DNA from: a virus
Lineage: Duplodnaviria; Caudoviricetes
Length of the DNA: 63,168 nt
Direction: 5' to 3' (one strand)
IMG/VR virus record: IMGVR_UViG_3300034093_001431
Span: 1 to 63,168 of that record
Part shown: positions 7,647-43,366 of the stretch, in pieces
Position numbering within the stretch: the first letter of the stretch is position 1
Layout of the letters: each line of letters begins with the position of its first letter
Position numbers and translations under genes: made by a program
The notes under the pieces: model-generated
Database searches by the model: none
What the model saw: only the letters and a program-made list of their open reading frames with translations
Told to the model about the DNA's origin: nothing

Positions 7647-7931
7647 ATGATTAACCCAAAAGAAAAAGCAGATGAGTTAGTAAAGAAAATGTATAATACA
7701 GAGCATTGTGGTATTGAGCATTTTCCAAATAAAAGATATTGTGATTGCACAGAAATGAATTTGTATCAAGCCAAGCAATGTGCGTTAATAGCAGTTGACG
7801 AGATTATAGAAGCTAATCCTTATAAGTGGGTTTCTTTTATGAATCAATATACTGAAACTGTACTGACAAGTAATATCCCATATTGGCAAGAAGTTAAACA
7901 AGAAATAGAACTAATAAGAGTTGGCAAATGA
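7647..7931 (+). CDS. Hypothetical protein of a family common in Bacteroidota phages
   Basis: PKEKADEL...AKQCALIAVDEII...YWQEVKQEIE. Confidence 0.7.
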   Translation: MINPKEKADELVKKMYNTEHCGIEHFPNKRYCDCTEMNLYQAKQCALIAVDEIIEANPYKWVSFMNQYTETVLTSNIPYWQEVKQEIELIRVGK

Positions 7932-8257
7932 TAACAAAGGAACAGGTACAAGAAAAAATTAAATCCCTAGCGCAATTAGATCCGCACCCGAAAAGGAAAG
8001 CCAAGATCAAGCAGCTTAGAGAAGTTGAAATTATAGTGTCCTCCTACAGCGAGTCGCTATTGATACCTCAACTTGAGAGGTTAAGGAAAGAGATACACAT
8101 CATCAAGTCCGGGATGAAAGAGGCGATTGAAAACATGGGGGATGCTATCCCGCTAAATGTTAGACGCCAGACATACATCGAGGAGATGCAGCTTAGAAAG
8201 AAACAGAGACAGGCTCTGTACATCAATTACATCATAACAGGAAAAGGAATAAAATAA
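7928..8257 (+). CDS. Hypothetical protein
   Basis: Coupled to upstream ORF. Confidence 0.7.
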   Translation: MITKEQVQEKIKSLAQLDPHPKRKAKIKQLREVEIIVSSYSESLLIPQLERLRKEIHIIKSGMKEAIENMGDAIPLNVRRQTYIEEMQLRKKQRQALYINYIITGKGIK

Positions 8258-8263
8258 ATAATT

Positions 8264-8425
8264 ATGAATATCACAAGTAAAGCAGAGTACTACAAGAAGT
8301 TAGAAAACTTAAAGAGCTGGAAAGATTTTGCACTGTCTGGCGTAGTAAAGAACGTAGAAGTTGCAAACAAGATCGATGTTGAGATCTTTGAATTTAAAGA
8401 CAGGTATGATTACTTAGCAAGATAA
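8264..8425 (+). CDS. Small hypothetical protein (53 aa)
   Basis: Translated by hand; A-rich leader. Confidence 0.55.
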   Translation: MNITSKAEYYKKLENLKSWKDFALSGVVKNVEVANKIDVEIFEFKDRYDYLAR

Positions 8426-8429
8426 GCTT

Positions 8430-8550
8430 TATATTTGCAACAAATACAGCCCACGTCTCGAAGAAGTACGAGCCTTCGAGGGGTGGGCAGGTAAGACTAA
8501 CCCCTTGCCTTAACCTAACCCCGTGGCTCGTACCTGCGGGGTTTTTTTAT
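8430..8550 (+). promoter_or_regulatory. Promoter plus two-hairpin leader/attenuator of the replication initiator
   Basis: TATATTTG; hairpin 8449-8488; terminator-like hairpin 8517-8548; loops complementary over 9 nt. Confidence 0.7.
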
Positions 8551-8560
8551 TTTACAATCA

Positions 8561-9376
8561 ATGACACAACAGGGCAATATTAGAAAGCGATCATACACTG
8601 ATAACTATGTGGTTATATCAAACAACATAGCGCAGTGTAAAGACCTTACATGGGAAGAGAAGGGAATGATCTTATTCCTACAGAGCCTCCCTCAGGACTG
8701 GAAGATTCATAAATCTAGCCTGCACGAGTTCAGTTCTAGTGGAGACTACAGCACAAGAAACACCTTTAACTCACTGGTAAAGAAGGGTTACATACAGAGC
8801 ATAAGACTAACAAAAGAGGGTAACAAGTTTGCAGGATGGGAACATATCTTTGATGTTGAAAAGAATTTCAATTTAGATTTATCCACTTGTGGGAAACCCA
8901 CAAACGGGGAAACCAATATTGGGAAACCTCACACTACAAAAGAAAAAGATACAAAAGAAGAAGATACAAAAGAAGAAGAGGGCGCGAACAAAATTGTAAG
9001 TAAAAAGAGGGTGCATGCCGGCCCCTCAACATGTACCCTCGAGGAAGCGATTGAGTACGCCGAGAAGAACGGGTTCAACAAAGAGTTCGCCACCAAGTTC
9101 CACGGGTACTATGTCCGGTGCGAGTGGAAGGATAGCCAAGGCAAGGTCGTCAAGAACTGGAAGAACCGAATGAATAGCTGGATGAGCCGGGAGGATAACA
9201 GCAGGTACATGACCTCAGCAAACACTGACGTGATAAAGATGAACGGCTTCAGCAAGGACAACAAGACGGGTAAGTACTTCAGGGTCTGGGAGAGGGACGG
9301 AAAGACTTACCAGTGTGACAGCGGCGGAACTTTCATGTACGGGGATGACAGGGATAAAATACCATACAACCAATGA
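8561..9376 (+). CDS. Lambda-O-like/HTH replication initiator with internal iterons
   Basis: N-terminal LTWEEKGMILFLQSLPQDW HTH; C-terminal FHGYY..EWKD..G..VKNWK; internal repeats. Confidence 0.75.
   Translation: MTQQGNIRKRSYTDNYVVISNNIAQCKDLTWEEKGMILFLQSLPQDWKIHKSSLHEFSSSGDYSTRNTFNSLVKKGYIQSIRLTKEGNKFAGWEHIFDVEKNFNLDLSTCGKPTNGETNIGKPHTTKEKDTKEEDTKEEEGANKIVSKKRVHAGPSTCTLEEAIEYAEKNGFNKEFATKFHGYYVRCEWKDSQGKVVKNWKNRMNSWMSREDNSRYMTSANTDVIKMNGFSKDNKTGKYFRVWERDGKTYQCDSGGTFMYGDDRDKIPYNQ
8891..8980 (+). repeat. Putative origin: 3x GGGAAACC (~15-bp period) plus 3x 15-bp A-rich ACAAAAGAARAAGAK repeats
   Basis: Direct reading of sequence inside initiator gene. Confidence 0.6.
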
Positions 9377-11265
9377 TAACAATATTCAGCAACATATTCG
9401 ACAAGACCCCTCACTACATTACAGTGGAGGCGGCGATCACAAGGATTAAGAACGGAAAGAGTAAGGAGAAGATAGAAGAGGTAAGGAGCCAGATCGACAA
9501 GGAGAGGGCGAACAGTCTCAAGAAGAACCTGCCAAGCATCTGCTTCAGCGGTAAGTTTACCGACAGGTTGGACAACTGCCTCATAGAACACAGCGGCTAT
9601 ATCGTCCTAGACTTTGATGACATTGATGACGTGGAAGGGTTCAAGACTAACCTGTTCAAGGACGAGTTCATCTACTCGTGCTGGGTGAGCCCGGGAGGTA
9701 ACGGGGTCAAGGCGTTAGTCAAGGTGGCTAAAGGAGACAGGCACCGCGAACACTTCGCCTCGCTCAAGGAGAAGTACCCTCTAGTCGACAAGAGCGGTGT
9801 GAATGTAAGCCGTGTGTGTTATGAATCTTACGACCCAAACATTCTTGTAAGGAGTACCCCGGTAGTGTACACGAAGTACATCGAAGAGGTCAAGGTAAGG
9901 TCAGAGGAGCAGGTCACCGACTACTCAATCATATACCAGACGATCATCAAGTGGCTAGCAAACAAGAACGATGCCTTCCGTACCGGAGAAAGGAACAGTT
10001 ACATCTACAAGCTAGCGTCGGCATGCTGCAGGTTTGGTATCCCGGAAGCTAACGCCGAGTACATGATAGTGGGCAGCTATGCTATAGGCAACTCTAGCTT
10101 CAGCGAGAAGGAGTGCGTCTCAGCCATTAAGAGTGCGTATAAATCAACTCAAAATACATTTGCTAGTGCTACCATCCAACACGGGACGTTAGTTGATTCT
10201 AAGACCTATAAAGAGGTCGAGATACCGAGGGGTGATGATTTCTACGACCCGAACGTGAAGGCTAAGGACGTGATGTACGGGGAGGACGTGAAGGACAAGG
10301 CGATGCAGATATACGACGGGGGAAGGGAGAACGTCATGCAGTGGGGTATCCCCATGCTTGACAAGCACTTCAAGAGGAGGAAGAAGGAGCTGACCCTCCT
10401 CAGCGGTATAGGAAACTACGGCAAGGGTTTGTGGTCCAAGTACCTTATGCTCATGAGGTCGATAAAGTTTGGAGAGAAGTGGGCGATCTTTGCCCCGGAG
10501 GATAACCCGGCGGAGGAGTTTTACATCGACCTTGTGGAGATGATGCTCGGCGCGGGTATAGACCCGTCCAACCACAGCCGCCCCAGCAGGATGAAGTACG
10601 AGTGGGCTTACGACTGGGTCAGCAGGCACTTCTTCTTCCTAGACCCCATAAGCATAACACCGACCCCGGCGTACATAAAGGAAAAGTTCTTGGAACTAAT
10701 CATCAAGGAGCAGGTGGACGGGTGCGTGATTGACCCGTTCAATCAGCTGTCAAACGACTACAGCAGTACGGGCGGCAGGGATGACAAGTACCTAGAAACA
10801 TTCCTGAGTGACATGCAGAGGTTCGCCCAGATCAACAACGTGTACATGGATATCGTGGCGCACCCGAAGACTATGAGAAAGGATGGGGCCCAGAACTATC
10901 CAATGCCCGACGTGTTTGACCTTGCGGGTGGCGCGATGTGGAACAACAAGGCTGACAACATAATGATATACCACAGGCCTAACCACCAGACGGATCCTAA
11001 CGATCCCCTTGCAGAGGTTGCGTTTAAGAAGATCAAGAAGCAGAAGATAACGGGCGTGAAGGGGGCGATTCAGATTGAATACGACTTCAAGATAAGGAGG
11101 TTCTTGTTCGAAGGTAAGGACGAGATGCAGGTAGCGATCGATCAAAAATTTACACCGGTTCAGCAGAGTATAAACACCGCAGTGAAATCAAACAATAATT
11201 TTTTAAAGACATACAAAGATGACTATGAACAGCCAGAGTATCCAAACGAGCCAGCCCCATTCTAA
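9373..11265 (+). CDS. Primase-helicase (VirE-N/BT4734-like primase, PriCT, SF4 helicase)
   Basis: KKNLP..FSGKF, LDFDD, VSPGGNGVK, GERN; Walker A GIGNYGK; VIDPFN; VAHP; NKADN. Confidence 0.88.
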   Translation: MITIFSNIFDKTPHYITVEAAITRIKNGKSKEKIEEVRSQIDKERANSLKKNLPSICFSGKFTDRLDNCLIEHSGYIVLDFDDIDDVEGFKTNLFKDEFIYSCWVSPGGNGVKALVKVAKGDRHREHFASLKEKYPLVDKSGVNVSRVCYESYDPNILVRSTPVVYTKYIEEVKVRSEEQVTDYSIIYQTIIKWLANKNDAFRTGERNSYIYKLASACCRFGIPEANAEYMIVGSYAIGNSSFSEKECVSAIKSAYKSTQNTFASATIQHGTLVDSKTYKEVEIPRGDDFYDPNVKAKDVMYGEDVKDKAMQIYDGGRENVMQWGIPMLDKHFKRRKKELTLLSGIGNYGKGLWSKYLMLMRSIKFGEKWAIFAPEDNPAEEFYIDLVEMMLGAGIDPSNHSRPSRMKYEWAYDWVSRHFFFLDPISITPTPAYIKEKFLELIIKEQVDGCVIDPFNQLSNDYSSTGGRDDKYLETFLSDMQRFAQINNVYMDIVAHPKTMRKDGAQNYPMPDVFDLAGGAMWNNKADNIMIYHRPNHQTDPNDPLAEVAFKKIKKQKITGVKGAIQIEYDFKIRRFLFEGKDEMQVAIDQKFTPVQQSINTAVKSNNNFLKTYKDDYEQPEYPNEPAPF

Positions 11266-15019: not shown

Positions 15020-15725
15020 TATAAGGTACCCTATACACAAGCTAGATGAGACAGAGGACGTGGTTCAGGCTTTTCCTGACCTGTCATCTGTAGGTATATT
15101 TAGCGAAACGTCACACCCTTTCATAGTAACGGTCTATGACGAAAGTGGATCAGCTTACAGGCAGACACTCGACGTTGACCTTGGCGGCTTAGACAACAAC
15201 TTCGTGATGAAGTACATTATACTTATGTACTCACCCGGAAGTCCTGCCATAGAAAAGTATCCGCAGATAGGGAAGAGGAAGACTTGGGTGCTGTCCGAGT
15301 TAGGCGTGATGCCTGATGAAGAAAACAAGTACGCCTCAGAGTACGATGACCTGTTACTTAATCAGAACAGGCTTATCCTCAAGAAGACTGCTGTGTTCTT
15401 AACGCTTCAGCAGCCGGCAGACTGGGCCATCATGCTCAAGAGTTCGGAGGATCTTCAGGAGGTGTTAGGTACCCCGATGCCGGAGGATCCGACAAAGCAG
15501 GTCCAGAGAATTAAAGCTGTCGAGTTGCTTCGTCAGGCCATATCGGACTCAAGGTCTAGGCTTATGGACCTAGAGACGAGTAAGAGTTTAGAGGCGGAGA
15601 TAGACGAGTTCATGGCTTACACCACGCTCGGTATAAGACCAGAAGAGTTTGTGATGATGGGTATAAAGCCTGTCCCGCCAAGCAAGGCCAAGAGCTCGCC
15701 TGTGTTTAAAAATGTAAGGAACTAA
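15000..15725 (+). CDS. Hypothetical protein, possibly terminase small subunit
   Basis: Directly upstream of and coupled to TerL. Confidence 0.45.
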   Translation: MKKNYGNIRYPIHKLDETEDVVQAFPDLSSVGIFSETSHPFIVTVYDESGSAYRQTLDVDLGGLDNNFVMKYIILMYSPGSPAIEKYPQIGKRKTWVLSELGVMPDEENKYASEYDDLLLNQNRLILKKTAVFLTLQQPADWAIMLKSSEDLQEVLGTPMPEDPTKQVQRIKAVELLRQAISDSRSRLMDLETSKSLEAEIDEFMAYTTLGIRPEEFVMMGIKPVPPSKAKSSPVFKNVRN

Positions 15726-18115
15726 TGTCTAAGTACCACGATAAATACAAGAGAGAGCAGCAGTATATAATGTACAATCTGGACGACCCTGACTTGGGCG
15801 GAGATAACGCCATCAAGGTTGAGCTGCCTACTCTTGAATCCTTCTATGACATGCCTTGGGATGAGGCGGTCAAGTTAGTGGACGGGTACGGGCTAGACCC
15901 TAAGGATCAGAAGTTTGACACATACAGGGACGCGGGGTACTTTAGCCTTCCGCCAAAGTTAAAGAGTATAGAAGAGCATGTAAGAAGGAAGAAGAAACTC
16001 AAGCCGAAGGATAAGCTGTTTGCTGAAGACTTCTTGGAAGACGTGGAGTCCGACCCTGTGTATTACAGGGAGGAGATAGAGTACATACAGCGCACTAGGA
16101 ACAGATCCGTTAGCGGGTACTGGTGCTTCATAAAAGGCAGGCCCACCTACATAGACGGGTGGCATTATACCTACCTGAACTTTACACCTATAGATAACGA
16201 TAACAGGAAAGACAGGATGCCTGACTACAGGGACGTGGACAGGAGGATCGTCTTGTTTTATCGATGGGCCTACACCACCACGTCCTCAAAGTTCAAGTAC
16301 GTCTTGACTTACAACAAGGACGGCAGGGTAAAGAAGAAGTACTTCAACAACAAGAACACGATATCTCAGTTTATCAAATTTGAAAAGCTGGGTGATTACT
16401 TTGTCGAAGACGAGGGGTATGACATAGACTTGGGTTACAGGACAGTGTTCGGCGTCGTGTTCCCTAAGCGCCGACGTGTAGGTGCCACGTTCCTTAGTGC
16501 CCACATCGGCATGCGTATAGCCGTGGACAACAGCATGGGCACGTTTGCGATTCAGGCGTTGACAGAGGACACAGCTATCGAGGACGTCTACCAGAAGAAG
16601 GTGCTAGCCTCTTGGAGGCACTACCCGTTCTTCTTAAAACCCTGCGCCTCACCAGCCGACACCAACGCGCTTGTCTTTACAAAGAAGGATCAGGTCGCGT
16701 TCGCTAACGACGTGGTGGAACACGGCGGGTGGATCAGGCCAAGGTCTTCAGCCAACAAGGCATTCGACGGTAACAAGCTGTTTGCTTACCTGAATGATGA
16801 GTCTGGAAAGAAGACGAGCGGCAACGTACTGCACGAGTTCACTGACACTATACGAAACGCCCTAGCTCAGGGTCAGAACATACACGGGTTTGCCATGTAC
16901 ACCTCAACCTTTGGAGAGTTCGAGAGCGGTGGAGGTAAGGAATACTTCGACCTGTGCGTGAAGTCATATGCACACAAGCGTAACGACAACGGTATCACAG
17001 CTTCTGGTCTGGTCACCTTGTTCATACCAGCGTATGACGGTTATGACGGGAGGGTCGACCAGTACGGTGAATCTATAATAGAAGACCCTGTCGAGGCTTA
17101 CATTAACCTAACAGGTGAACTCTGCGAGGAGGGTGCCAAGACTACCCTCATGAAGACGAGGTCTTACCTTGAGGAAATCAAGGACTGGAATGGTTTGAAC
17201 AACGAGGTAAGGAACAACCCGTTCACTCTCCGAGAGGCGGGCAAGAAGGGTAACAGGTCTAACTTCTGGGATGTTAGTATAAACAGGACAAGGATAAGTG
17301 AGCTTAAGTTTGGAGAGAACAAAGTGCTCGACGTTAATTTCGAGTGGACGAATGGGAAGTGGTCACCGGTAAGGATTGTCGACGGAACGCCTGAGCGCCC
17401 CGGTAAGTGGAAGGTTAGCTTAAGGCCCGCCCCGCAGTACGTTAACAGGTTCAGCTGGGATGCTAGGATAGATAGTTACACCCCGGACCCAGACACTGTA
17501 GGTAAGTATATCCTTGGGACCGACCCCTTCAGCTACGACAACAAGGACGTGGTAGGTAAGAAGAAGTCTAACGGTGGTGGCGCCATGTACATGCCGCACG
17601 ATCCGATGATCGACACCCCGGACAAGTCACCTTCAGATTACGTGACAGGCGACTTTATTGCGACATACAACAACAGGGTTGAGACCACCGACGAGTACTG
17701 TGAAGACATGCTCCTAGCCGCCGTCTATTGCGGGGCCTTGGTCTTTACCGAAAGGAACGTGGACCATATTATAAAGTACTTCAGGAACAACCACGCATCA
17801 GCGTACCTGCTCCACCAGATAGATCCGCTGACCGGAAGGATAGAGCCGGTGCCGGGGGTGAGGACAGGGACAGGGGTTCACGAGAAGATATTTGCCAAGT
17901 ACGGGGACTACGTGAAGACAGTCGGTCACAGGGCTAGGCACATAGAGATACTTGAAGAGATTGATGGGGTTCAGAGTTTTAACGACATGACCAACTATGA
18001 CCTCTTTGCTGCGGGAGGGATGGCCCTGCTCGGGGCTGAGAGCAAGCACACTGAGATTATTAAGTCCAACAATACCAGCAATGATATAAGCGGCTTTATT
18101 GATCTATACGATTAA
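15725..18115 (+). CDS. terL: Terminase large subunit (crAss-like type)
   Basis: PKRRRVGAT Walker A variant, LNDESGK Walker B, TST coupling motif, GTDP nuclease, ERN, YDLF. Confidence 0.9.
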   Translation: MSKYHDKYKREQQYIMYNLDDPDLGGDNAIKVELPTLESFYDMPWDEAVKLVDGYGLDPKDQKFDTYRDAGYFSLPPKLKSIEEHVRRKKKLKPKDKLFAEDFLEDVESDPVYYREEIEYIQRTRNRSVSGYWCFIKGRPTYIDGWHYTYLNFTPIDNDNRKDRMPDYRDVDRRIVLFYRWAYTTTSSKFKYVLTYNKDGRVKKKYFNNKNTISQFIKFEKLGDYFVEDEGYDIDLGYRTVFGVVFPKRRRVGATFLSAHIGMRIAVDNSMGTFAIQALTEDTAIEDVYQKKVLASWRHYPFFLKPCASPADTNALVFTKKDQVAFANDVVEHGGWIRPRSSANKAFDGNKLFAYLNDESGKKTSGNVLHEFTDTIRNALAQGQNIHGFAMYTSTFGEFESGGGKEYFDLCVKSYAHKRNDNGITASGLVTLFIPAYDGYDGRVDQYGESIIEDPVEAYINLTGELCEEGAKTTLMKTRSYLEEIKDWNGLNNEVRNNPFTLREAGKKGNRSNFWDVSINRTRISELKFGENKVLDVNFEWTNGKWSPVRIVDGTPERPGKWKVSLRPAPQYVNRFSWDARIDSYTPDPDTVGKYILGTDPFSYDNKDVVGKKKSNGGGAMYMPHDPMIDTPDKSPSDYVTGDFIATYNNRVETTDEYCEDMLLAAVYCGALVFTERNVDHIIKYFRNNHASAYLLHQIDPLTGRIEPVPGVRTGTGVHEKIFAKYGDYVKTVGHRARHIEILEEIDGVQSFNDMTNYDLFAAGGMALLGAESKHTEIIKSNNTSNDISGFIDLYD

Positions 18116-18190: not shown

Positions 18191-20536
18191 ATGATACCAT
18201 TTGATAAAATCACACCGTTCCCGCAGGACGACCTGTCGTCCGAAAAGAAGAAGGAGTCCTTTTACGGAGTCTCTGCAGCGAGAGCAATATACGGAAGATG
18301 GTATAGCGCCCCGATACCATATGGTTCGGGCGGAACTGTTTACGGTAACCTCGGGTACTTTAACATGCTCAAGAGTTACGCCGAAGGAAGACAGAGCACA
18401 CTCAAGTACAAGAAGCTGTACAGGGGAGAGAACGTAAGAGATAGCGCCTCGGGCTCAAAAGGTTTTAACGAGAACGCTAGGAAGGGTTACAACAATATCG
18501 GGTTCGACCAGAACAGTATCGTGAGCTCTGCACCTTTATTGATAAGTGTTATCAAGGGCTTGCTTACCCAGAGTGATTATAAGGTAGTAGTGTCGTCAAC
18601 TAGCAAGTCTGACGTAGCACTAAAGAGTAAGATCAAGTGGAAGATGTACGTCGACTCAAAGATCGTAAACCCACTCAAGGAGGAGTTAGGCATACCTTAC
18701 TCGAAGCCTGACTGGGAGCCTCAGACTGTTCCAGAGCTAGAGCTTTATGAGAAGTATCACGGAATCAGGCTGCCTTTGGAAATCGGCATGAGCATGATAG
18801 GCGAGCACGGTTTCGATGTATCAGACTGGAACAAGGTTAGGGACAAGATGATTGACTCAGCCTTGCAGACCTCATTTATATGCGGAAGGGTTGTGACTAA
18901 CGCGGACGGCAGCGTCGGCATGAAGTACATTAACCCGGCCATGTACATAACAGTGTGGGACGATGACAACCCTGAGCTAGACCCGCCATTCGCTGGTCAT
19001 ATTATGAGGGTTCCTATCCATGTCATAAAGCAGAAGATGCCAGAGTTGACAGACAAGGAACTCCAGAGCTTGGCTAGAATGTATGCCAACTCTAACAACG
19101 TGAGTGACCCCACAAACTATCAGTGGACTGCACGCGACCCTGTTACACAGAGGTACACATGGTACGACTTCTTAGTCGACGTGCTTCATTTTGAGTACAA
19201 GACAGATGACGTAACTTTCTATGTAGGCCGTAACGCCACGAACGGTAACTTCGTTTACAAGCAGGAGGACAGGGTAAAGAAGAAGTACGCTGACGGAAGA
19301 CAGAGGAAGACGGATAAGTATTACAAGAATAATATATACGAAGGGTGCTGGATCATAGGATCTAATCACGTCTACGACTACGACCTTCAAAAGAATATGA
19401 TAAAGAACCCTGACGGTTCTTGCGCCCTAAGCTACTTCAGTGAAAGGATAGCCGGCAAGGCTATAGTGGAGAGATGGCAGAGCTTGTTGGATGATCAGCA
19501 GATTGCTACATTAAAGTTGAGGGCTGCTATTCTTGCTGCCGCTCCAAAGGGTCTAGCTATCGACGTCGGCTTGTTAGCTAACATGGACTTGGGGCTTGGA
19601 AAGGTGAGCGCTATGGAGATAGCTCGAATCAGAAGAGAGACCGGTAACCAGTTCTACGCTACTCGACTAGAGGTTGGGCAGAAGTACTCTGGAGCTAACG
19701 CTATGATGGAGCTTGAGAATGGTGTCGGTAGACAGCTTGACGAGTGGATCAGCTATCAGATGTTTATCGAGAATCAGTTAAAGCGTATTGCTGGTATAAC
19801 CGACATGGCTTCAGCAAGTCCGGGGTCTTCTCCAGAGAAGCTAGTCGGCATGGGCCAGATGGAGTTGGACAGCACGAACAACGCGCTCCACAACATACGC
19901 CAAGCTATTATAAGAATTAAAGAGAAGGCTGCAAGGAAGATGATCCAGAAGGTTCGAGTGAACATAGAAGGGGACGCTACTTGCGCTAAGTATTATGAAG
20001 GGTACCTAGGAGAAGTTTATTACAACGCTGTAAAGAACATCAAGGATATTACTTTGAACTCTATAGGTATTAAGATGAAGGCTACCACTACAGCGCAGAG
20101 AAAGGCTTACATAATGAGTCTGCTCGAGGCTAGCTTGGCGGCAGGTAGAAACGGCCAGAAGGGTATAACAACCGCAGACGCTATGTATGTAGAGAAGACC
20201 TTGGAGGACGGCAACGATGAGTTAGCGGCTTGGTACCTAGCATTGGCTGAAGAGCGTGCAGAGAGAAAGATCCAAGAGAATCAGGAACGTATGTCGGCAA
20301 TTAACGCTGACAATAACATGAGAGCGGCACAAGCTGCCGAGCAGACACGCATGCAGTATGAGCAGATATTGAGTCAGTTGAAGACTACCGAGGACGGGCA
20401 GAAGATTGCCAACCAACTCGAGGCAGACCTACTCAAGATCGAGGCTAAGAAGAATGCTGACTACGAGCTGATGACTTTAGAGGGTCAGCTTCAGTCCTCT
20501 CAGGGTAAGGAGATATCAGGAAAGATAAGAATATAA
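18191..20536 (+). CDS. Portal protein
   Basis: 781 aa, follows TerL, helical C-terminus, GITD..S motif. Confidence 0.85.
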   Translation: MIPFDKITPFPQDDLSSEKKKESFYGVSAARAIYGRWYSAPIPYGSGGTVYGNLGYFNMLKSYAEGRQSTLKYKKLYRGENVRDSASGSKGFNENARKGYNNIGFDQNSIVSSAPLLISVIKGLLTQSDYKVVVSSTSKSDVALKSKIKWKMYVDSKIVNPLKEELGIPYSKPDWEPQTVPELELYEKYHGIRLPLEIGMSMIGEHGFDVSDWNKVRDKMIDSALQTSFICGRVVTNADGSVGMKYINPAMYITVWDDDNPELDPPFAGHIMRVPIHVIKQKMPELTDKELQSLARMYANSNNVSDPTNYQWTARDPVTQRYTWYDFLVDVLHFEYKTDDVTFYVGRNATNGNFVYKQEDRVKKKYADGRQRKTDKYYKNNIYEGCWIIGSNHVYDYDLQKNMIKNPDGSCALSYFSERIAGKAIVERWQSLLDDQQIATLKLRAAILAAAPKGLAIDVGLLANMDLGLGKVSAMEIARIRRETGNQFYATRLEVGQKYSGANAMMELENGVGRQLDEWISYQMFIENQLKRIAGITDMASASPGSSPEKLVGMGQMELDSTNNALHNIRQAIIRIKEKAARKMIQKVRVNIEGDATCAKYYEGYLGEVYYNAVKNIKDITLNSIGIKMKATTTAQRKAYIMSLLEASLAAGRNGQKGITTADAMYVEKTLEDGNDELAAWYLALAEERAERKIQENQERMSAINADNNMRAAQAAEQTRMQYEQILSQLKTTEDGQKIANQLEADLLKIEAKKNADYELMTLEGQLQSSQGKEISGKIRI

Positions 20537-32345: not shown

Positions 32346-35300
32346 ATGCCCATTTTATCAAAGGATATATTCTTCTATGGCGGTATAGACACCGACAGTG
32401 ACGACCGTCTAATTAAAGACGGCGACTACCGCACGGCGGTCAATGCCCGTGGACCAGAGGCAACCTCTTCCTCGGGTGGCGCTATTGAGAACATGACAGG
32501 ACACCTGTATGTTGAGAACAACGCCTTAGGTGATGACGACTACGTTATGGGTGGCTGCGCTTACACTGAGAGGAAATCGATAGTGTACTTTGTATTCAAC
32601 GCGGCGGGCGATCATTCTATATGGTACTACAACACACAGGATCAGACTCACACGTTAATCATACAGGACCCTATCCTAAACTTTCAGATAGACAGAAAGA
32701 TTAATAACGCCGCTGTCATCAACAACATACTGTACTGGACGGACGGGTACTTTGAGTCTTACGAGGTAGGGGTTGATGGGTACTGGGAGTTTAACCCTCC
32801 AAGGATGATCAACATAGACAAGGCGATCGCTGGCTACGCGGTCGTTGACGAGGCCCTTCTTGATATCATAAAGGCGCCAGCGCCATACGCGCTCAATCCT
32901 CAGTACATAACTAACGGCACTCAGGCAAACAACCTGTACGGTCAAGCCTATCAGTTCGCTATTCAGTGGGGGTACGAGAACGGGGAGAGGAGCGTGTGGA
33001 GTGTAACGAGCCCGGTACCTGTACCTACAAAGCAAGAGTATATACAAGGCAGGAACTATAACCAACCGTTTGAGGATAACGCTATTCAGGTAGATATACC
33101 AACAGGGAGTGAGCAGGTGAGGTACCTAAGGGTAGCTGTAAGGCCGGGTAACGACGCCCCGTTCCAAGTGTTCTACGAGTCGGACAAGCTGATTGATGTG
33201 ATAGCGGATAACGTGACTATACCGGTCACTTATGACGGAACGGTTGCAGGGTCTACTGTCCCGCTAGTGGAAGGTATCAGGAACTATGACCGCGTCCCGC
33301 AGGTAGCGGACACGCTGGAGGTGTTGAGTTCCGTGAACCAGCTGGCGTTCGGTAAATTTGTTGAAGGGTACGCAGGGGTTGACTTGGAAGATAGCGGGGT
33401 GTCCTACTACACCACGGAGATACCCAATCAGGTGTACGGCACAGACGCAAAAGTTTCTTATACGATATCCTCGTTTGTTGGATGGACTTTATCTATATAT
33501 ACATCAAGTGCTACTCAATTTAATTTTTGCGCTGGAGATGTTTTGATTTTTCAATTTTCAGATTTTAATGTATCTACTGGATCTCTAGGGTCGCCATATT
33601 TTGTAAGTTATACTATTAGTTCTAGCGATATTAATGATACTACAGGTCTTACTTTATTACAAAAAAGACAAGTGCTTATAAATAAAGTGGGATTATATTT
33701 ATTTGATTTTTTTAATGATCGTTATGGATTAGGTAACCAAACTTTTATTTCAGCTACAGGTTTTTCTGTTTCTTTTTTCATAGAATTTCTTGGAGATGAT
33801 AGAGCTGCTCTTTTTTCTATTAAAGAAACAAAATTCTATTCGCTTTTATCTCCTATAAAAACATTAAAGACCGGGGTTCTCCACGAGTTTGGCATACAGT
33901 ACTACGACAGGGCGATGAGGAACGGTGATGTGTTGACAAACCCTAACTACCAAGTGTATGTGGACTTCCCTTCTCAGGAAGACACCTCTGGTTTTGTTGA
34001 CCCTAGAAGCCCTTACTTTGCAAGGCCGTTACTCACCGGTAGGAACACGCCACCTATCTGGGCTAAGTACTATCAGCTTGTATGGAGACGCACGAAGATT
34101 CAAAACTTTCAGCAAAGAACAGCTGTGAGTATGTATCAGGATGGGTCCTTGTACAAGGTGAACTTGGATACTTATTACGAGCAGGTATGGGGTGCTAAGA
34201 TAAACCACCAGATATCGGTAGGTGACGTGTTCAGAATTAAGAACGCACAGGGAGAAGATGTTCACGACAACGTGACAGGTCTGCCTGATTACGCATACGA
34301 GTACATAGAAGGTCGCGTTGAAAGGTACGACCCTGTCGGTGGAGATAACAACGGGGAGGCTATATGGGTAACCCTGTTTGACTACAACGCTGTGATCAAG
34401 TACTCTGAGAGTTTTGTGGTAGAGGTTTACACCGCTAGAAAAGATTATATTGACGAGCCCTTCTATGAAATCGGTGAGGTGTTTGATGTCGTTGATCCTT
34501 ACACAGAGGATAGAAGACATGGAGGCAAGACCTACACAGGCAACGTAGTCACCGCGCCTGCACTTGGAGGCAACACGTTTGTTGTGGATGGTGATGTTAG
34601 ACCTATACTATTAGGGAACCCTAACGTACCTTACGAGATAGCATTCTTCTACACCGTGGGTAGTGACTTTGTAACCACCGTGACTAATGTGGTTTACGAT
34701 TACGGTACCAACACATCTACAGTAACGACTTCCGATAATAGCAACGGGGATCCTTACGCGAGTTATTTGTTTAGCACAGGATCTGCACAGCCCGGGGAGA
34801 CGTTTACCATAGCTCATGGGTACGGGGATGTTTACTTAAGACCTCGTGCAACTAACAGGCAGAACACTATAACCGGTGGAAACTGGAGGTACTGGGTAGA
34901 GGACCCACACATCTCGGACTACTACATCTCTAACGCTATTGACATCGGGAAGCTAGCCTTGGTGAACAAGTACGGCGGTAGAAAAAATCAGAAAGCTAGC
35001 CTTATACACGGCGGGTCCTACATAGACAATACCAACGTCAACAATATTTGTAGCTTTGACTTCAATATCAACAACAAGATAGACCTTGACGAACAGTTCG
35101 GGGATATCAGGTGGATTGGTATGAGCGGGTACACCCTAAAGGTTCTGCAGGACAGGAAGGAGACCTCGGTCTATATTCAGCGTGCGACTCAGGTTAACGG
35201 TGACGGCAGCGTGTCTGTGTCTAACCTTAACGACAGGACTTGGGGAGGTATCAACCCCTATGAATCATTGTACGGAACCATACACCCGCTATCTGTAAAA

Positions 35301-36068
35301 GTTGTCGCTGGTCAAATGTTCTACTACGACTACCACTCTTCAAGGTTTATACGATCCTTAACCAACGGCCAGCAGGATATATGCGACGGGGATTTTAAAT
35401 TCGTGAAGGGCGCGTCAGACATAACCAACGCTATTAGCCTGTATGGGCTAGATGATATGTTTGTCATAGCGTCCATCGATGAGCAGAACAAAGAGTACCA
35501 GTGCTTCTTCGCCTCTACCGGCGAGGATGTTGGGTCTTATTTGCTAGGCGTGGTGTTCAGCTACTCCCAGAGCAGGTGGAAGACAACCCTGAACTGGACT
35601 CCTACGTGGGCTACTAACTTCGGGGAGAGCTTGCTGTACTGGAACGTGAAGGATCCTTACGTTGCAAACGAGGGGACACCGTTAGAGTTTCTAGGTTCCG
35701 CCTCTGAGTTTAAGGTGACGCCTGTATTCAACGACAACGCCGTGCTGGTCAAGAGACCTTTAGCCCTGAACCTTACGTGCTACCCTCTAGCGTCATATGT
35801 GGTGGCAAGCATACCACAGACAAACAGCTATAACTCTCAGACTACACAGATGAACGAGAACATCTTCTCCGTGTACGAAAACGGAATGTGGACAGAGTAC
35901 ACCATGAACGAGAATGATCCGTCATTCGCTAGCGCATCCCTAGCAAACCTTAACGGTGATGAGCTGCGTGGTTACATCATATACCACGACGTTTATTATT
36001 TAGGGCAGGAGAAGTTCAGCCTGCTTAGAATGAGAGTCAACTATATACCTAGCGAAACAGCGCAGTAA
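32346..36068 (+). CDS. Tail stabilization/muzzle protein
   Basis: N-terminal GG...DSDDRLI..GDYR.A.N, LYWTDG..PPR.INI, FGIQYYD motifs of crAss-like muzzle proteins. Confidence 0.8.
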   Translation: MPILSKDIFFYGGIDTDSDDRLIKDGDYRTAVNARGPEATSSSGGAIENMTGHLYVENNALGDDDYVMGGCAYTERKSIVYFVFNAAGDHSIWYYNTQDQTHTLIIQDPILNFQIDRKINNAAVINNILYWTDGYFESYEVGVDGYWEFNPPRMINIDKAIAGYAVVDEALLDIIKAPAPYALNPQYITNGTQANNLYGQAYQFAIQWGYENGERSVWSVTSPVPVPTKQEYIQGRNYNQPFEDNAIQVDIPTGSEQVRYLRVAVRPGNDAPFQVFYESDKLIDVIADNVTIPVTYDGTVAGSTVPLVEGIRNYDRVPQVADTLEVLSSVNQLAFGKFVEGYAGVDLEDSGVSYYTTEIPNQVYGTDAKVSYTISSFVGWTLSIYTSSATQFNFCAGDVLIFQFSDFNVSTGSLGSPYFVSYTISSSDINDTTGLTLLQKRQVLINKVGLYLFDFFNDRYGLGNQTFISATGFSVSFFIEFLGDDRAALFSIKETKFYSLLSPIKTLKTGVLHEFGIQYYDRAMRNGDVLTNPNYQVYVDFPSQEDTSGFVDPRSPYFARPLLTGRNTPPIWAKYYQLVWRRTKIQNFQQRTAVSMYQDGSLYKVNLDTYYEQVWGAKINHQISVGDVFRIKNAQGEDVHDNVTGLPDYAYEYIEGRVERYDPVGGDNNGEAIWVTLFDYNAVIKYSESFVVEVYTARKDYIDEPFYEIGEVFDVVDPYTEDRRHGGKTYTGNVVTAPALGGNTFVVDGDVRPILLGNPNVPYEIAFFYTVGSDFVTTVTNVVYDYGTNTSTVTTSDNSNGDPYASYLFSTGSAQPGETFTIAHGYGDVYLRPRATNRQNTITGGNWRYWVEDPHISDYYISNAIDIGKLALVNKYGGRKNQKASLIHGGSYIDNTNVNNICSFDFNINNKIDLDEQFGDIRWIGMSGYTLKVLQDRKETSVYIQRATQVNGDGSVSVSNLNDRTWGGINPYESLYGTIHPLSVKVVAGQMFYYDYHSSRFIRSLTNGQQDICDGDFKFVKGASDITNAISLYGLDDMFVIASIDEQNKEYQCFFASTGEDVGSYLLGVVFSYSQSRWKTTLNWTPTWATNFGESLLYWNVKDPYVANEGTPLEFLGSASEFKVTPVFNDNAVLVKRPLALNLTCYPLASYVVASIPQTNSYNSQTTQMNENIFSVYENGMWTEYTMNENDPSFASASLANLNGDELRGYIIYHDVYYLGQEKFSLLRMRVNYIPSETAQ

Positions 36069-38278: not shown

Positions 38279-41200
38279 ATGGATAAAGTAGAGCAGTTAT
38301 ATAACTTATACTTAGAAAAAAAACTAATTACTAACGCTACTTCTTTGGAGAAGTTTCGTAGTGCGGGTGCAGATCAGCAGGACGCCTTGTTTAATCTAGG
38401 TAAAAAGAATAATCTATTTAAAGAAACTACTTTTGATACGTTTAAAAGTGCGTGGACTCCTAGTGATGTAAAAAAAAAAGACGAGCCGGAACAAGAATCT
38501 ACGCCGCAACAAGAAGCGCCATCCAAGCCTTCTGCAAAGCCTTCTCCGCCGAGTGGAAAAGAGGCTAAGATAAAAGAGCTCACGGTCAAGGCGGCTGAGT
38601 TGGCGGCTAGCGGTGATCAGCAGGGTCTTGCTAAGATAAGACAGGAGATAGTTGCTCTAAAAAAAGAAGCGGCACCAACCCCTGTTTATGAAAAGTCTGG
38701 GGTGGAAAAACCTAAGACAGACTGGCGTGCCGAGGGTCTTAAGATGATGGGTCGAGAGATCGAAGGTCTTGAGCAAAAGTCCGATGTTACAAGTGTTGAT
38801 GTAAACAAGCCTATTGAGATTAAAAAACAAGAGGCTCAGGCATACAATACTGAACAGAAAAAGAAGACAGAAGAGGAGAAGAAGGTGCGCGAAGAAATGT
38901 CTGCTGCTATTAACGAGACGTACAAGAGGCAGGCTGAGTACCTAGGAATAAAACAAGAGGAAGGGAAGGAGAAACTTTCGACGTATGAGATGAGGCAGAT
39001 GTATGAGCAGTCGATAGACCAAGCTCAGAAATACCTCGACGTTGTCCCAGAGTCTAGAGCATCCTTACCTATCAACGACGTCTTGGCTACAAGAAAAAAG
39101 ATCAACATGATGCCTAGCGACACTGACGAAGAAGTCCGTGCGCAGCTTCGTGCGTTGGCAGAGAATGACAAAGACTTGGAGAGGGCTTATCAGGAGATGG
39201 AGAACAGAGCTCTAGAGTACTGGAAGGTTTATGATCCGGGCAAGTACGAGACTTACACTGACCGCATGGCTACTATCAAGGATAAGGTTGGTGATATCCC
39301 TATGTATGACTTTAACTGGGAGGAGGACAGCTCTAAGCCTAGGCTCTCTTCTGAAGACAAGAAATTCCTAGAGCAGTTTAGAATAGAATCGTTACAGCTA
39401 CAACAGAGCGCAGATAACTACAGAGCAAAGAAGCTGACCGAGAATTACGACTTCAAGTCTTACAGCAAGGACGCCTCGTCTATTCAAGAAAGTCTCAGCA
39501 GTGTAATGAAGCAGATCAAGGAGACTGAATCTCAGTACAAGCTAGAGGAAAACAAGATCATGTCTCAGCATGACAAGTACAATGCTCAGGTGAGAGTTCT
39601 TAACGACAAGGTGTCGATCATGGAAAAGACTCTGGGTTCTTACCTAGATGCTAACGGGAATATAAAAGATGAGGGTAAGCTAGATGAATACAACGAGACT
39701 TACCGTAAGTACCAAGACCTTATAAACGAGGCGAACAGCCTACAAGAAAACAGGCCGTCCATATACAACGATCAGGGTTATATTGTAGCCCCTGCCACAT
39801 CACCAAAGGTGAAGCAGCTGTATGATCAGTACAACACGTTGATGGAACAGTACAACAAGGCGGGTGAGAAGTACGGTATAACGCCTGAGGTTACAGGTGA
39901 ACTGAACAGCGCTGTGTCTAACTTAGAAAACTCAAAGGCTTCACTAGCATACGCAGAAAAATATCAAGAGTTAAGTAACGATCGCGCGGTCGCTAAGTAC
40001 TTTCAGGAAGAGAAGCTGAGGGTGATGAAGGAAGGCAACGCATTCGAGAAAGGCTGGTTGGTAGCTAGAGATATAGCAACAGGTGTTGGCAATACGGTGC
40101 TTCCTATACTTGAAGCGCCAAAGGCTATTAGTGATATGGCTGGTTTCGAACAAGAGTACGGGTGGGCAGATGGCTTGGCGGACTGGACTCAAGGGTTTCT
40201 ATCTAAAGTGAACGAGAAGACTTCTTACGGGGATCTAGAGGTGCCTAGCTGGATGACTACCGTGCAAGACTTGAGTCAGGGCGTAGGGTCCTCACTTGGT
40301 TTTGCTATAGGTGGTGGCGTGGCAGGTGTGGCAGGAAGAGCTGTAGGTGTAACTGCCAAGTCCATAGACGCATTCCAGAAGAGTGCTGTGTTCACTCAGG
40401 TTTTCTTGGGTGGTCTTAACGACAACTATCAAGCGGCAAAGCTGGCAGGATTGTCCGACGCAGAGGCAGCCGCTGCTGCTACATTACAGTCTGGTGGTCA
40501 GGCGATAGGTGAGTTGGCGGTACCTGACTATAAAATATTTAAGGCGGCTAACCGCCCGAACTTATTCAGTGCTGTTAAAAGCCTAGGGCTTACACAGGGT
40601 GTTAAGAATTGGGCGCCGACCTACACGAAGAACCTTGCAGAGAATTTTATTAAGGAGGGGATAGAGGAAGGCACCTCTGAAATCATAACCAAGGGTAGCG
40701 CCAAGGCTATCAACACGTTAACTGACATGAAGGTGTACGAGGACGACATCAAGTCATCCGATCTAAGAGACGTCTTCACCAGTGGCGGTGCTGTGGGTAT
40801 GATCATGGAAGGGTTCAGACTTGGTCATAAGTACAAGCACCCTGTCACTAACAGCGCCACGAGATGGTACGCGGAGATGAGTGAGGCTGACAGGGAGGAG
40901 ATGAAGATGGGTATGAGCATTGAAGATGTTAACGCACTCAACAAGGCCGAGAAGGATAGTGACGCGTTCAAGATTGCTGAGGACATGAAGATGATCCCCC
41001 AGTACGCGATGATGAACGAGGTCGAGAAAGACGAACTGTTCGCTTTATTGTTAGAGAAGAAGACTGTGGCTGAGAGGTACCGAGGTATTGGACTTGGTGG
41101 CACAGAGATGGAGAAGCAGGAGATAGAGTCGTTGGATGCAGCGATCAAGGAAAAGTTCATGGCCGTTGACCAGAGGAGAGAGACCGAGTTACAGTCTGAG

Positions 41201-43366
41201 ATGGCTCGCCAGCGTGAGGATATCCAAGAGTTCGGTGTGTCCTTAAGAGTTCCTGAGGTAAAGACCGCAGAGGAGGTCATGTCTAAGGGTGAGTTCTTGG
41301 ACGACAACGTGGCGGCTAACGCTGACAAGGGTCTGTCGAAGATGATAGACGAGGTTATAGAAAGAGAGGACCTGACTGATGATGAGAAAGTTCAGCTTGC
41401 TCAGGTACTCGAAGATAGAAGACAAAAAATAAATAGCTATGAATATAGATCAAAGAATGAGGTTGTCACTTCTACCCAAACCCGCCCAAGTGGAGTTGTT
41501 GAAAAGGCTAGAGCAGCGAATGAGCGAGCAGCAAAACCAATCGCCGCAGCCGCAGCAAAAGAAAACCCAGTCCCTGTAGCCCTAGACGGGGTGAAGGGGA
41601 AGGTTAAGGTGAGTGACTCTACTATGGTTGACAACATGGGCGACACGATCCCGGAGGGGTACTACGTGTTCGTGCCTGATTCAACCGAAGGAAAGGGCGC
41701 CCGCATGGGGGCTGTTGTTATCGGGTCAATAGAGGACATCGACTCCGCCTCAACATTCGAGGGTGTGGAGAACAACCCGGCATGGAGCCCAGAGAATAAC
41801 ATGGTGGCGAACTTCACCACCCCTGATGGTCAGACGTTGAGTATCCTTGACGACGACCTCAGCGCGGATGTTGGTGTTAAGCAGAAGGAGGATGTTATCG
41901 GTGCAGCACCACAGGCACTTTTCGATGTAGTGTTCGAGGAGGTGACCACGGAGTTAGGCATTAAAGAGAAACCATATTTAAAGGATGATACGAAAGACAA
42001 AGAAGGGCTACCAAGTAGTCAGCGAACAGGGCAAGCCCCTGTCCAAGCCGGACCTGTCCAAGGAACAGGCACAGAAGAGGTTGCGCCAAGTGGAGTGGTT
42101 CAAGAACAAGAAGTAGACTTTGACGGTGCACCAGAGCTAACGCCTGAGGAGGCAGAGCTGATGTCAGCAGGCTACGACAACGCGATGTCTCAGGTCTTAG
42201 AGTTGGACGACACGCTAAGCCCGGAGGATACAGACCTTGCTGCATCATTTGTTCAGCAGGGAGCTACCCCTCAAGAGGCGGTGCAGATGGTACGTGACGA
42301 GAAGGACTCTATCTCTGCAGCGTCAGAGCCTGTCGTGCAAGAGGATCAGGAGTTCCTAACTCCCTTGCCTGATACGGACCCTGTCGGGAGAGCATTCTCC
42401 TTGTCCCTACCATTCGAGTACACAAGGTCTAGGGCTATGGAATTAAAGGAGAGGGCAGCAAACGATCCTACCCTAAAGCGTGCACTGAGAAACCTAGACA
42501 AGGCAGCCGAGTCGTTTGCTAAAACCTTCGGGTCTAAGCTACCAGTGTACGTGTTCGACACTCAGCAAGAGATGCTGGACGCCCTCGCCGAGGTCGGTGA
42601 GGTGAGTGACATGACCAACGGATCAATCCTTATGGATGATGACGGGACAATCTTGGGCGTGTTCATGAACGCTGAGTCTCAAGACTTCACGGTCGGGTCG
42701 CACGAGTTTGTTCACGGGATAATGGCGGAGTTCTTCAACGACAACCCTGAGATGTTTAACAAGTGGAAGGATTCAATCCTGAAGAACTTCAAAGGGTCAG
42801 GCATCGACAGGTTAAACGAGTGGGCTGAAAGCGAATACGACAGGGATAGTTCAGCCGAGGAGTTTATCACACAGCTCACTGCCGAACTAGCCGATGCAAA
42901 CAAGCAGCTGGCGTTGCCTAAATCTTTTCTTAATTCTATCAAGGACTTATTCAACAGTATATGGGAAGGCGTCACAGGAAGCCCGCTCTTCTCTGAGAGG
43001 GCTACGGAGAAGGACGTGATCACGTTTATCAACGACATGGCTAAGGGCCTGTCTACCGGGCAGGCTATGTCCACTAAAGCAGCAGAGAAACTGGCGGGTA
43101 GAGAGAAGAAGGCGGCTGCTAAAAAGAAGGCCAAGAATAGTAAGTCTGTCGTGCAGGCTCGTGCGTCTGTAAACATTGGCCAGATAAACCAGATCAATGC
43201 AGCTGACGGCCTGTCCAAGAACCCAGAGAACAAGGAGCTGGCTGACCAGATAAAGCAGGAAATTTTTGACAGCAACCCTACCCTTGAGTTCATCATGAAC
43301 AACTTCAATAAAATAGAGAAGGCTCTTGTGAACGAAGGGAAATTAAAAGTAAATTGCGAACTTTAA
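38279..43366 (+). CDS. Large polyvalent cargo protein with zincin metallopeptidase domain
   Basis: Gly-rich TM-like segment; HEFVH...EEF; C-terminal NP..NCEL motif. Confidence 0.75.
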   Translation: MDKVEQLYNLYLEKKLITNATSLEKFRSAGADQQDALFNLGKKNNLFKETTFDTFKSAWTPSDVKKKDEPEQESTPQQEAPSKPSAKPSPPSGKEAKIKELTVKAAELAASGDQQGLAKIRQEIVALKKEAAPTPVYEKSGVEKPKTDWRAEGLKMMGREIEGLEQKSDVTSVDVNKPIEIKKQEAQAYNTEQKKKTEEEKKVREEMSAAINETYKRQAEYLGIKQEEGKEKLSTYEMRQMYEQSIDQAQKYLDVVPESRASLPINDVLATRKKINMMPSDTDEEVRAQLRALAENDKDLERAYQEMENRALEYWKVYDPGKYETYTDRMATIKDKVGDIPMYDFNWEEDSSKPRLSSEDKKFLEQFRIESLQLQQSADNYRAKKLTENYDFKSYSKDASSIQESLSSVMKQIKETESQYKLEENKIMSQHDKYNAQVRVLNDKVSIMEKTLGSYLDANGNIKDEGKLDEYNETYRKYQDLINEANSLQENRPSIYNDQGYIVAPATSPKVKQLYDQYNTLMEQYNKAGEKYGITPEVTGELNSAVSNLENSKASLAYAEKYQELSNDRAVAKYFQEEKLRVMKEGNAFEKGWLVARDIATGVGNTVLPILEAPKAISDMAGFEQEYGWADGLADWTQGFLSKVNEKTSYGDLEVPSWMTTVQDLSQGVGSSLGFAIGGGVAGVAGRAVGVTAKSIDAFQKSAVFTQVFLGGLNDNYQAAKLAGLSDAEAAAAATLQSGGQAIGELAVPDYKIFKAANRPNLFSAVKSLGLTQGVKNWAPTYTKNLAENFIKEGIEEGTSEIITKGSAKAINTLTDMKVYEDDIKSSDLRDVFTSGGAVGMIMEGFRLGHKYKHPVTNSATRWYAEMSEADREEMKMGMSIEDVNALNKAEKDSDAFKIAEDMKMIPQYAMMNEVEKDELFALLLEKKTVAERYRGIGLGGTEMEKQEIESLDAAIKEKFMAVDQRRETELQSEMARQREDIQEFGVSLRVPEVKTAEEVMSKGEFLDDNVAANADKGLSKMIDEVIEREDLTDDEKVQLAQVLEDRRQKINSYEYRSKNEVVTSTQTRPSGVVEKARAANERAAKPIAAAAAKENPVPVALDGVKGKVKVSDSTMVDNMGDTIPEGYYVFVPDSTEGKGARMGAVVIGSIEDIDSASTFEGVENNPAWSPENNMVANFTTPDGQTLSILDDDLSADVGVKQKEDVIGAAPQALFDVVFEEVTTELGIKEKPYLKDDTKDKEGLPSSQRTGQAPVQAGPVQGTGTEEVAPSGVVQEQEVDFDGAPELTPEEAELMSAGYDNAMSQVLELDDTLSPEDTDLAASFVQQGATPQEAVQMVRDEKDSISAASEPVVQEDQEFLTPLPDTDPVGRAFSLSLPFEYTRSRAMELKERAANDPTLKRALRNLDKAAESFAKTFGSKLPVYVFDTQQEMLDALAEVGEVSDMTNGSILMDDDGTILGVFMNAESQDFTVGSHEFVHGIMAEFFNDNPEMFNKWKDSILKNFKGSGIDRLNEWAESEYDRDSSAEEFITQLTAELADANKQLALPKSFLNSIKDLFNSIWEGVTGSPLFSERATEKDVITFINDMAKGLSTGQAMSTKAAEKLAGREKKAAAKKKAKNSKSVVQARASVNIGQINQINAADGLSKNPENKELADQIKQEIFDSNPTLEFIMNNFNKIEKALVNEGKLKVNCEL
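41439..41579 (+). CDS. Candidate overprinted +1-frame gene (46 aa)
   Basis: AAAAAATAAATAGCT-ATG; MNIDQRMRLSLLPKPAQVELLKRLEQ... Confidence 0.35.
   Translation: MNIDQRMRLSLLPKPAQVELLKRLEQRMSEQQNQSPQPQQKKTQSL
41985..42116 (+). CDS. Overprinted +1-frame small basic protein (43 aa)
   Basis: MIRKTKKGYQVVSEQGKPLSKPDLSKEQAQKRLRQVEWFKNKK*, resembles a stand-alone small phage protein family. Confidence 0.65.
   Translation: MIRKTKKGYQVVSEQGKPLSKPDLSKEQAQKRLRQVEWFKNKK

Follow-up and report, generated by a model that had tools for sequence, protein, structure and literature searches.

The window analysed here, IMG/VR virus record IMGVR_UViG_3300034093_001431 (Duplodnaviria; Caudoviricetes; 63,168 bases, a complete genome with direct terminal repeats, considered at its full length), very probably contains a real, separately translated small gene nested within a giant gene of the virion module. 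An ATG at position 41985 opens a 43-codon open reading frame (ORF) on the plus strand, which ends with TAG at 42114-42116 and encodes a basic peptide (P0001); the small ORF occupies the +1 frame of a 1695-codon ATG ORF on the same strand, at 38279-43366 (P0002; table 1). A nested gene of this kind had been proposed in a first-pass annotation made from the letters of the sequence, and the proposal is supported by the existence of a protein family, by the recurrence of the nesting in other phages and by frame-specific selection. The ORF and its peptide, as quoted there, were reproduced exactly. The residues described as a linker in the main frame were found again in the giant frame, which reads ...KPYLKDDTKDKEGLPSSQRTGQAPVQ... 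across the overlap and ...KDDTKDKEGLPSSQRTGQAPVQ... at the nested site in the P0002 translation, and the stretch before the ATG is indeed A-rich, its 20 bases being 50% A and 70% A+T. The length of the small ORF is by itself unremarkable, because seven ORFs of 40-46 amino acids are present in the same +1 frame between positions 39000 and 43366; what stands above chance is homology, not length. In the mechanism that we favour, translation would start additionally at AUG 41985, within a patch of the late giant gene that is rich in A and unstructured, and the ribosomes would read the +1 frame for 43 codons, giving a small basic protein made up of a beta-hairpin and a helix; read in frame 0, these nucleotides would yield only a polar inter-domain linker of the giant protein.

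Table 1. Features of the window discussed in the text, with the basis of each assignment.
Feature	Position	Strand	Basis
GroEL-type chaperonin, full-length	1518-3107		phrog_5725, E=8.6e-171
Primase/helicase	9373-11265		PHROG match
Large terminase	15725-18115		PHROG match
Portal	18191-20536		PHROG match
Virion structural protein	32346-36068		PHROG match
Host gene of the nested ORF, 1695 codons, virion module	38279-43366	+	full-length relatives; flank variants 6/6/15
Probable internal translation-initiation region in the giant ORF	41955-41984	+	A/T-rich, little structure, no Shine-Dalgarno motif
TAA stop in the small frame, one codon 5' of the ATG	41979-41981	+	sequence
Dual-coding segment in the giant frame, residues 1236-1280	41984-42118	+	polar, acidic, stop-free; probable shadow of the small gene
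Nested small gene (very probable)	41985-42116	+	ORF, family, purifying selection in the small frame, AlphaFold2 model
HEFVH motif (HExxH type), C-terminal part of the giant protein	42701-42715	+	H1475, E1476, F1477, V1478 and H1479 invariant in 7/7 relatives

The resemblance of the peptide to a stand-alone family of small basic phage proteins, suggested in the first-pass annotation, is borne out by homology searches. A tblastn search of 50,697 phage records (2.3 Gb) with P0001 returned a single significant match, in Aeromonas phage 1233, which spans 43/43 residues (E=1e-7) and reaches 3e-13 when a more typical family member is used as the query. The sole other record at E<=1e-3, an RNA ligase gene of a Cronobacter phage (E 6e-4), is matched over half the length of the peptide and was taken as chance. 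In a word-indexed protein search, all 17 scored proteins of 42-50 amino acids matched P0001 (E from 1e-15 to 2.5e-4; 60-86% identity), and a profile built from 82 sequences (A2) retrieved, from 1.84 billion representatives, 2620 clusters at E<=1e-3 and 616 at E<=1e-10. A scan of IMG/VR yielded at least 598 pattern matches, 428 of which were confirmed, so that at least 428 viral contigs carry a relative; the window genome itself matches a single-protein query with E=1.5e-25. The best 80 of these at least 428 matches were fetched as loci L003-L082.

Members of the family are about 42-60 amino acids long and follow the pattern M-I-x-K-T ... G-Y-x-V-x-S-x-x-G-K-x-L-S ... A-x-K-R-L-x-Q-V-E-x-F-K, which P0001 fits; M1, V11, S13, L19, R32, L33, E37 and F39 are invariant in the 82 sequences. 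The homologue in Aeromonas phage 1233 (locus L001, accession number OR359403.1) is intergenic and unannotated, with GGGAG 7 nucleotides before its ATG and a hairpin and a T-run downstream. The 67-kb record of this phage has 28 annotated features, and the neighbouring ORFs of 618, 812 and 89 amino acids are left without annotation as well. Two longer proteins, P0020 (199 amino acids) and P0022 (169 amino acids), each carry two tandem copies of the small domain.

A copy was regarded as nested when the small ORF falls entirely within an open stretch, at least 300 codons long, of the frame lying one base upstream of its own. Defined in this way, the window and 53 of the 80 fetched IMG/VR loci have a nested small gene, and the other 27 and Aeromonas phage 1233 have a non-nested one; since the query that selected these top 80 was led by the window peptide, the 2:1 share of nested copies is biased and is no population estimate. 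Stand-alone homologues, the lack of which the first-pass annotation had named as a sign against its proposal, thus exist both in a cultured phage and among uncultured ones. The offset of the giant frame is identical to that in the window in every nested locus, and the open span of the host frames is mostly about 1000 to more than 3500 codons, many of them extending past the fetched DNA. In L047, for example, the small gene sits at about codon 1859 of a 3532-codon open frame (423-11018), and the nested start of L050 lies only 66 codons into its host ORF. The loci counted as non-nested include L012, where the small gene may lie within an ORF truncated at the end of the contig, L004, L081 and L082, whose giant-equivalent frame has no stop, and L037, where the small domain is the in-frame C-terminal part of a 115-amino-acid ORF. 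The nested copy is the sole copy in the genome in the window and in 5/5 other nested-type genomes (94-100% complete, 61.6-66.6 kb). Three loci encoding relatives of the giant protein (L003, L085 and L086) retain an intact small frame with its ATG, at 77-81% peptide identity; in these three, the +1 frame is free of the stops that had been named at the outset as the second counter-sign. In a tree of 69 small proteins the nested and non-nested labels are clustered (10 changes versus 20.1 in shuffles), and its columns are too few to demonstrate either a single or a multiple origin of nesting.

The pattern of substitutions indicates which of the two frames is being maintained. Among 48 unique nested copies, the mean pairwise difference at positions 1, 2 and 3 of the small-frame codons is 0.276, 0.216 and 0.471, respectively, and the corresponding values in 24 non-nested copies are 0.338, 0.264 and 0.633. 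Position 2 of the small frame is position 3 of the giant frame, and the 'silent' position of the giant codons is therefore the least variable one, which, on the comparison of these copies, is the opposite of the expectation for DNA coding only in the giant frame. Among nested copies, translations of the small frame share a mean amino acid identity of 0.714, compared with 0.41 for the giant frame and 0.412 for the stop-filled third frame. When substitutions were counted in 315 pairs of nested copies with no more than 30% difference, the synonymous share in the small frame was 0.504 versus 0.213 expected, corresponding to a non-synonymous-to-synonymous ratio (N/S) of 0.27 times the expectation; in the giant frame it was 0.136 versus 0.241 expected (N/S 2.03 times the random expectation), and in the third frame 0.18 versus 0.213 expected. 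The window and its nearest relative, L003, differ at 29 of 123 bases (76% nucleotide identity). Read in the small frame, the changes are synonymous in 15 cases and non-synonymous in 12; read in the giant frame, the numbers are 2 and 27, respectively. Stops in the giant-equivalent frame number 1-8 in 24/28 non-nested copies and 0 in nested copies, and the third frame of each nested copy has 1-8 stops. Over the overlap, the giant frame of the unique nested loci consists to 73% of D/E/K/R/Q/N/S/T/G/P, with 17% acidic and 6% basic residues. As judged from these comparisons, selection maintains the residues of the small frame but demands of the giant frame only that it remain open and polar. With purifying selection acting on the small frame but not on the amino acids of the giant one, the 'linker' appears to be a shadow frame, just as the first-pass annotation had supposed.

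One might instead attribute the conservation to the nucleotides themselves, with the overlap acting as an RNA element, as a signal for packaging or regulation or as a recombination joint, and with a small frame that is open as a by-product. In favour of this, the overlap is the best conserved part of the giant ORFs, which are mosaic (see below), and has module insertions and deletions right beside it. Contigs from four freshwater runs, compared with the window over positions 41400-42700 (1301 bases), exhibit 27 variant sites, all in the flanks (6/6/15 on giant codon positions 1/2/3; 17 synonymous, 10 non-synonymous), and a variant-free stretch of 250 bases (41921-42170) spans the overlap and extends beyond the nested ORF on both sides. 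However, the differences follow a three-base periodicity in the small frame, where half of them are synonymous, the same pattern recurs in non-nested homologues located in quite different DNA contexts, and folding predictions give the start region unusually little structure. We therefore find a purely nucleotide-level explanation scarcely credible; a role as a recombination joint could exist on top of the coding function.

The host of the small gene is, on the evidence of its alignments and of the flank variants, itself a real coding sequence on both sides of the nested site. Full-length relatives of P0002 (alignment A3) comprise 1585-1917 amino acids, are 34-82% identical to it in that alignment (P0172 and P0173 are given as its 83% and 61% relatives) and align across the nested site, with invariant columns both upstream and downstream of it; a metagenome scan with A3 found two loci, both in the 33-45% identity class. 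P0002 has no Pfam or PDB match, its PHROG rows are weak and sub-threshold (E 0.083 and 0.12), neither tblastn nor blastn found it in the phage collection, and a search of IMG/VR with its C-terminal 415 amino acids found no relative. The label 'cargo protein', which had been attached to the giant ORF, is thus unsupported by any family match. The HEFVH motif in its C-terminal part may mark a zincin-like peptidase, as found in polyvalent proteins, with no family model matching.

The giant ORFs are, by the same kind of comparison, mosaic around the nested gene. When P0002 was compared by tblastn with the 82 stored loci, eight matched and only L003 did so along its length; the match reaches barely beyond the overlap in five loci, extends about 60 amino acids upstream in L029, and in L080 a C-terminal domain of P0002 is found upstream of the nested gene instead. 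Once the overlap is left out, the 400 amino acids upstream fall into 22 similarity clusters and the 400 amino acids downstream into 24, most of them singletons. The L032 group has an upstream flank in common with the L043/L024 group and a different downstream flank, and blocks of about 130-150 amino acids are present or absent directly beside the nested gene when L010 is compared with L018 and L013.

This mosaicism bears on the possibility that the small gene is a relic that was swallowed by a fusion and is no longer expressed, its conservation reflecting recent descent. Such an interpretation could appeal to the mutual relatedness of many nested loci and to the fact that expression is deduced from sequence only, but the diversity of the giant flanks and the behaviour of P0002, whose match in six of the eight loci is confined to or centred on the overlap, speak of a divergence across which the small frame has kept 71% mean identity, an N/S of 0.27 times the expectation, its start codon and freedom from stops. 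Furthermore, the nested copy is the only one in each genome checked (6/6). We consider a silent relic highly improbable.

The start of the small gene has features of its own. The start codon is ATG in 46, GTG in seven and GTA in one of the 54 nested loci, the last having an ATG one codon upstream of the GTA. Only one of the 52 long ORFs of the window has a strict Shine-Dalgarno (SD) sequence at its start, and the 20 bases upstream of these ORFs average 0.463 A and 0.70 A+T, close to the 0.50 and 0.70 at the nested start. Upstream of the nested start, A makes up 0.526 of the bases across the 48 unique loci, versus 0.331 at internal positions of the same giant ORF, the control being exceeded in 47 of them (paired Wilcoxon p=1.7e-9), and the 30 nucleotides on either side of the nested start are less stably folded than controls in 46/48 loci (mean z 1.56); since the loci are related and the Lys-rich coding sequence contributes, the p-values for the start context overstate the case. 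In the window, the minimum free energy of the region within 30 nucleotides of ATG 41985 is -1.7 kcal/mol versus a mean of -12.0 kcal/mol at 100 internal controls (z 2.36). A strict SD sequence lies just 5' of the nested start inside the giant ORF in L025, L041, L059, L072, L073 and L074, i.e. 6/48 loci versus a control rate of 0.06, and occurs in 11/25 unique non-nested copies. Both the start codon and the initiation-type context of the small gene are, as far as comparison of these loci goes, conserved.

The same data bear on a +1 frameshift, by which some of the ribosomes translating the giant gene would enter the small frame and produce a truncated giant protein ending in a basic domain. Natural fusions lend this idea a certain appeal: P0116 (395 amino acids) consists of giant-like sequence that runs directly into the small domain and then stops, being either a natural in-frame fusion variant or the result of a one-base assembly error near the nested start, and in P0246 and P0256 the domain is fused in frame at the C-terminus. 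The small frame is, moreover, open for 26-56 codons upstream of the start in L040, L041, L042 and L074. Nevertheless, in the window a TAA precedes the ATG by one codon, which leaves nearly no room for entry into the small frame by frameshifting (one open codon upstream, against a median of six over the 54 nested loci). Homology begins exactly at Met1, where 53/54 nested loci have ATG or GTG and the remaining one has an ATG at the preceding codon. In the window sequence we recognised no +1 shift site, and the upstream context is that of a start site. A programmed frameshift product was rejected on account of the TAA and the conserved start codon, and a frameshift origin of the protein in general seems to us very unlikely.

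Several points weigh against the conclusion that the nested gene is real and separately translated, besides the sampling bias of the 80 loci. Many loci are mutually related, so that tests over the 48 loci overstate their independence; the low structure of the start region comes partly from the Lys-rich coding sequence itself; and the lack of variants inside the nested ORF (0/27 versus 2.7 expected) is not significant (P=0.065). The phage is uncultured and no RNA runs are listed among the sequencing runs containing the region, and with a single cultured phage possessing a homologue (Aeromonas phage 1233) the case for translation rests on comparison.

Leads to the function of the small protein come from its predicted structure, its neighbours and its fusions. 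AlphaFold2 models P0001 with a predicted local distance difference test score of 95.3, assigning residues 2-4 and 9-12 to strands and residues 26-41 to a helix; in about 43 residues, the predicted chain forms a beta-hairpin, then a short third strand and finally a C-terminal helix. A homodimer prediction scored 0.01 against a mark of 0.42, run without controls. In the non-nested loci, where the neighbour scan covered one or two of the largest neighbours per locus, a large terminase gene lies within about 1.5 kb in 8/16 loci scanned, and a portal gene adjoins in one and tail-fibre genes in two. In-frame fusions place the domain at the N-terminus of a head maturation protease in the Vibrio phages XM1 and VBM1 (profile score 36.8 bits at residues 13-47, with phrog_530 spanning residues 66-475) and at the C-terminus of a MuF-like head morphogenesis protein in P0246 (PF04233, phrog_324); in P0256, an unassigned protein of 633 amino acids, it is also C-terminal. 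MuF-type proteins are described as head components of portal-terminase phages (PMC5512222). Because of the MuF-like and head-protease fusions and the terminase neighbourhood, we tentatively suggest, at somewhat less than even odds, that the product might be a small basic protein of the head interior or of the packaging step, perhaps a small DNA- or portal-binding protein. A small terminase subunit was considered and rejected, the protein being far too small for one and a 241-amino-acid ORF lying directly upstream of the large terminase gene of the window.

A number of results tell against assigning it such a function. Neither P0001 nor its relatives are matched by family models of Pfam, PHROGs or NCBIfam, and Pfam searches with 18 family members gave no match even at E<=10; P0001 is absent from the ESM Atlas, where the homologue P0018 leads only to unnamed 'hypothetical protein' clusters. 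Foldseek found nothing in the PDB at E<=0.001 (best rows E 1.9 or worse), a wide VIA-align search had a best Z of 4.4 with none outstanding among 274 chains at Z>=2, and a sequence search of the PDB with profile A2 returned chance rows only (E 0.24 or worse). The remaining neighbours in non-nested loci are a glycosyltransferase, a helicase or ORFs with no match, and some fusions are unlike a head role, namely those to an HhH glycosylase-like domain (P0220) and to a dehydrogenase (P0253). UPF0339/YegP-type proteins (3bid, 6q2z and 2k7i) are among the top rows of both fold searches at noise-level scores (Foldseek E 1.9-6.9; VIA-align Z 3.1-4.0), as are the AP2 and lambda integrase arm-binding folds (2gcc and 2wcc), all rows being at noise level (Z 3.1-4.4).

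The closest architectural parallel among known systems is provided by the spanins. In phage lambda, the small late gene Rz1 lies within the larger late gene Rz, in the +1 frame and with its own start, and the small gene of two-component spanins is embedded or separate, depending on the phage. The arrangement described here is alike in that a larger ORF encloses the whole of a small same-strand ORF, which occupies its +1 frame and has a start codon to itself. However, the 43-amino-acid peptide contains no Cys, lipobox, lipoprotein signal or hydrophobic N-terminus, the hosts are many unrelated or mosaic giant ORFs rather than one conserved partner family, and the host frame over the overlap is a linker that appears free of selection on its residues. 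A spanin identity of the small protein is ruled out by the lack of Cys and of a hydrophobic N-terminal signal; the likeness concerns gene architecture alone.

The giant proteins recall the polyvalent and MuF-linked head-packaged phage proteins, which, according to the main text of Iyer et al. (2017; PMC5512222), include zincin-like peptidase domains. Points of likeness are the giant multidomain ORFs of the virion module, the HExxH motif of P0002, reminiscent of zincin-like peptidases, a histidine phosphatase domain in the L047 giant (PF00300, E=1e-16, residues 1685-1803, just 5' of the nested gene) and the fusion of the small domain to the MuF-like P0246. P0002, at most a candidate member of the group, has no MuF or other Pfam domain. 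In the main text of the same paper, the word 'overlapping' occurs 0 times and 'reading frame' once, and a nested gene is seemingly undescribed there. Our literature searches, which covered the main texts of part of the literature, found no description of this nested arrangement. To our knowledge, only a few classic cases of out-of-frame nested genes exist in tailed phages.

In classical viral overprinting (reviews PMC8227390 and PMC3494269), a new gene is born inside an older one. The present case is similar insofar as two proteins are encoded by one DNA stretch in different frames under asymmetric selection. The polarity, however, appears reversed, since the nested gene is widespread (2620 clusters) and also occurs non-nested, whereas the overlapping part of the big gene is unconstrained and presumably younger. 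The small gene is probably the older partner, and it would have been engulfed when neighbouring virion genes fused across it. A fuller and, taken as a whole, doubtful scenario would run as a reverse overprinting: an old gene of the head module would have been engulfed by fusing giants, with its -1 frame read as a flexible linker; the dual-coding segment, as the sole constant piece in the mosaic giants, would provide a shared patch of homology for module exchange; and the small protein would be a co-packaged internal head protein that binds DNA or the portal.

Gene callers normally do not report an ORF nested in another gene, and phages carrying the nested form may seem to lack an otherwise very widespread protein. 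At least 53 contigs of uncultured phages would thereby conceal one small protein family within their giant virion genes, in the same frame each time. The arrangement could also serve as a test bed for how ribosomes of hosts with SD-less starts initiate inside a translated ORF, and for how giant modular virion proteins arise by fusion across existing genes.

As to the phage itself, the nearest isolates by its terminase are phages of Flavobacterium, Cellulophaga, Tenacibaculum and Maribacter, at about 25% identity. Gene starts without SD sequences fit a Bacteroidota-type host, a putative assignment with which this terminase kinship agrees. The region is present in 20 freshwater or lake runs from 15 studies, two of which are possible sources. 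Among other features of the genome, the chaperonin region has its highest GC content (0.566 versus about 0.47). Four long ORFs, starting at 7928, 9373, 26758 and 46034, share the same first nine bases, ATGATAACA (Met-Ile-Thr); the first bases of the nested gene are ATGATACGA (Met-Ile-Arg). Finally, a 95-codon ATG ORF runs antisense over the nested gene (41961-42248, minus strand) and is probably spurious, because no antisense frame is the longest over the overlap in related loci.

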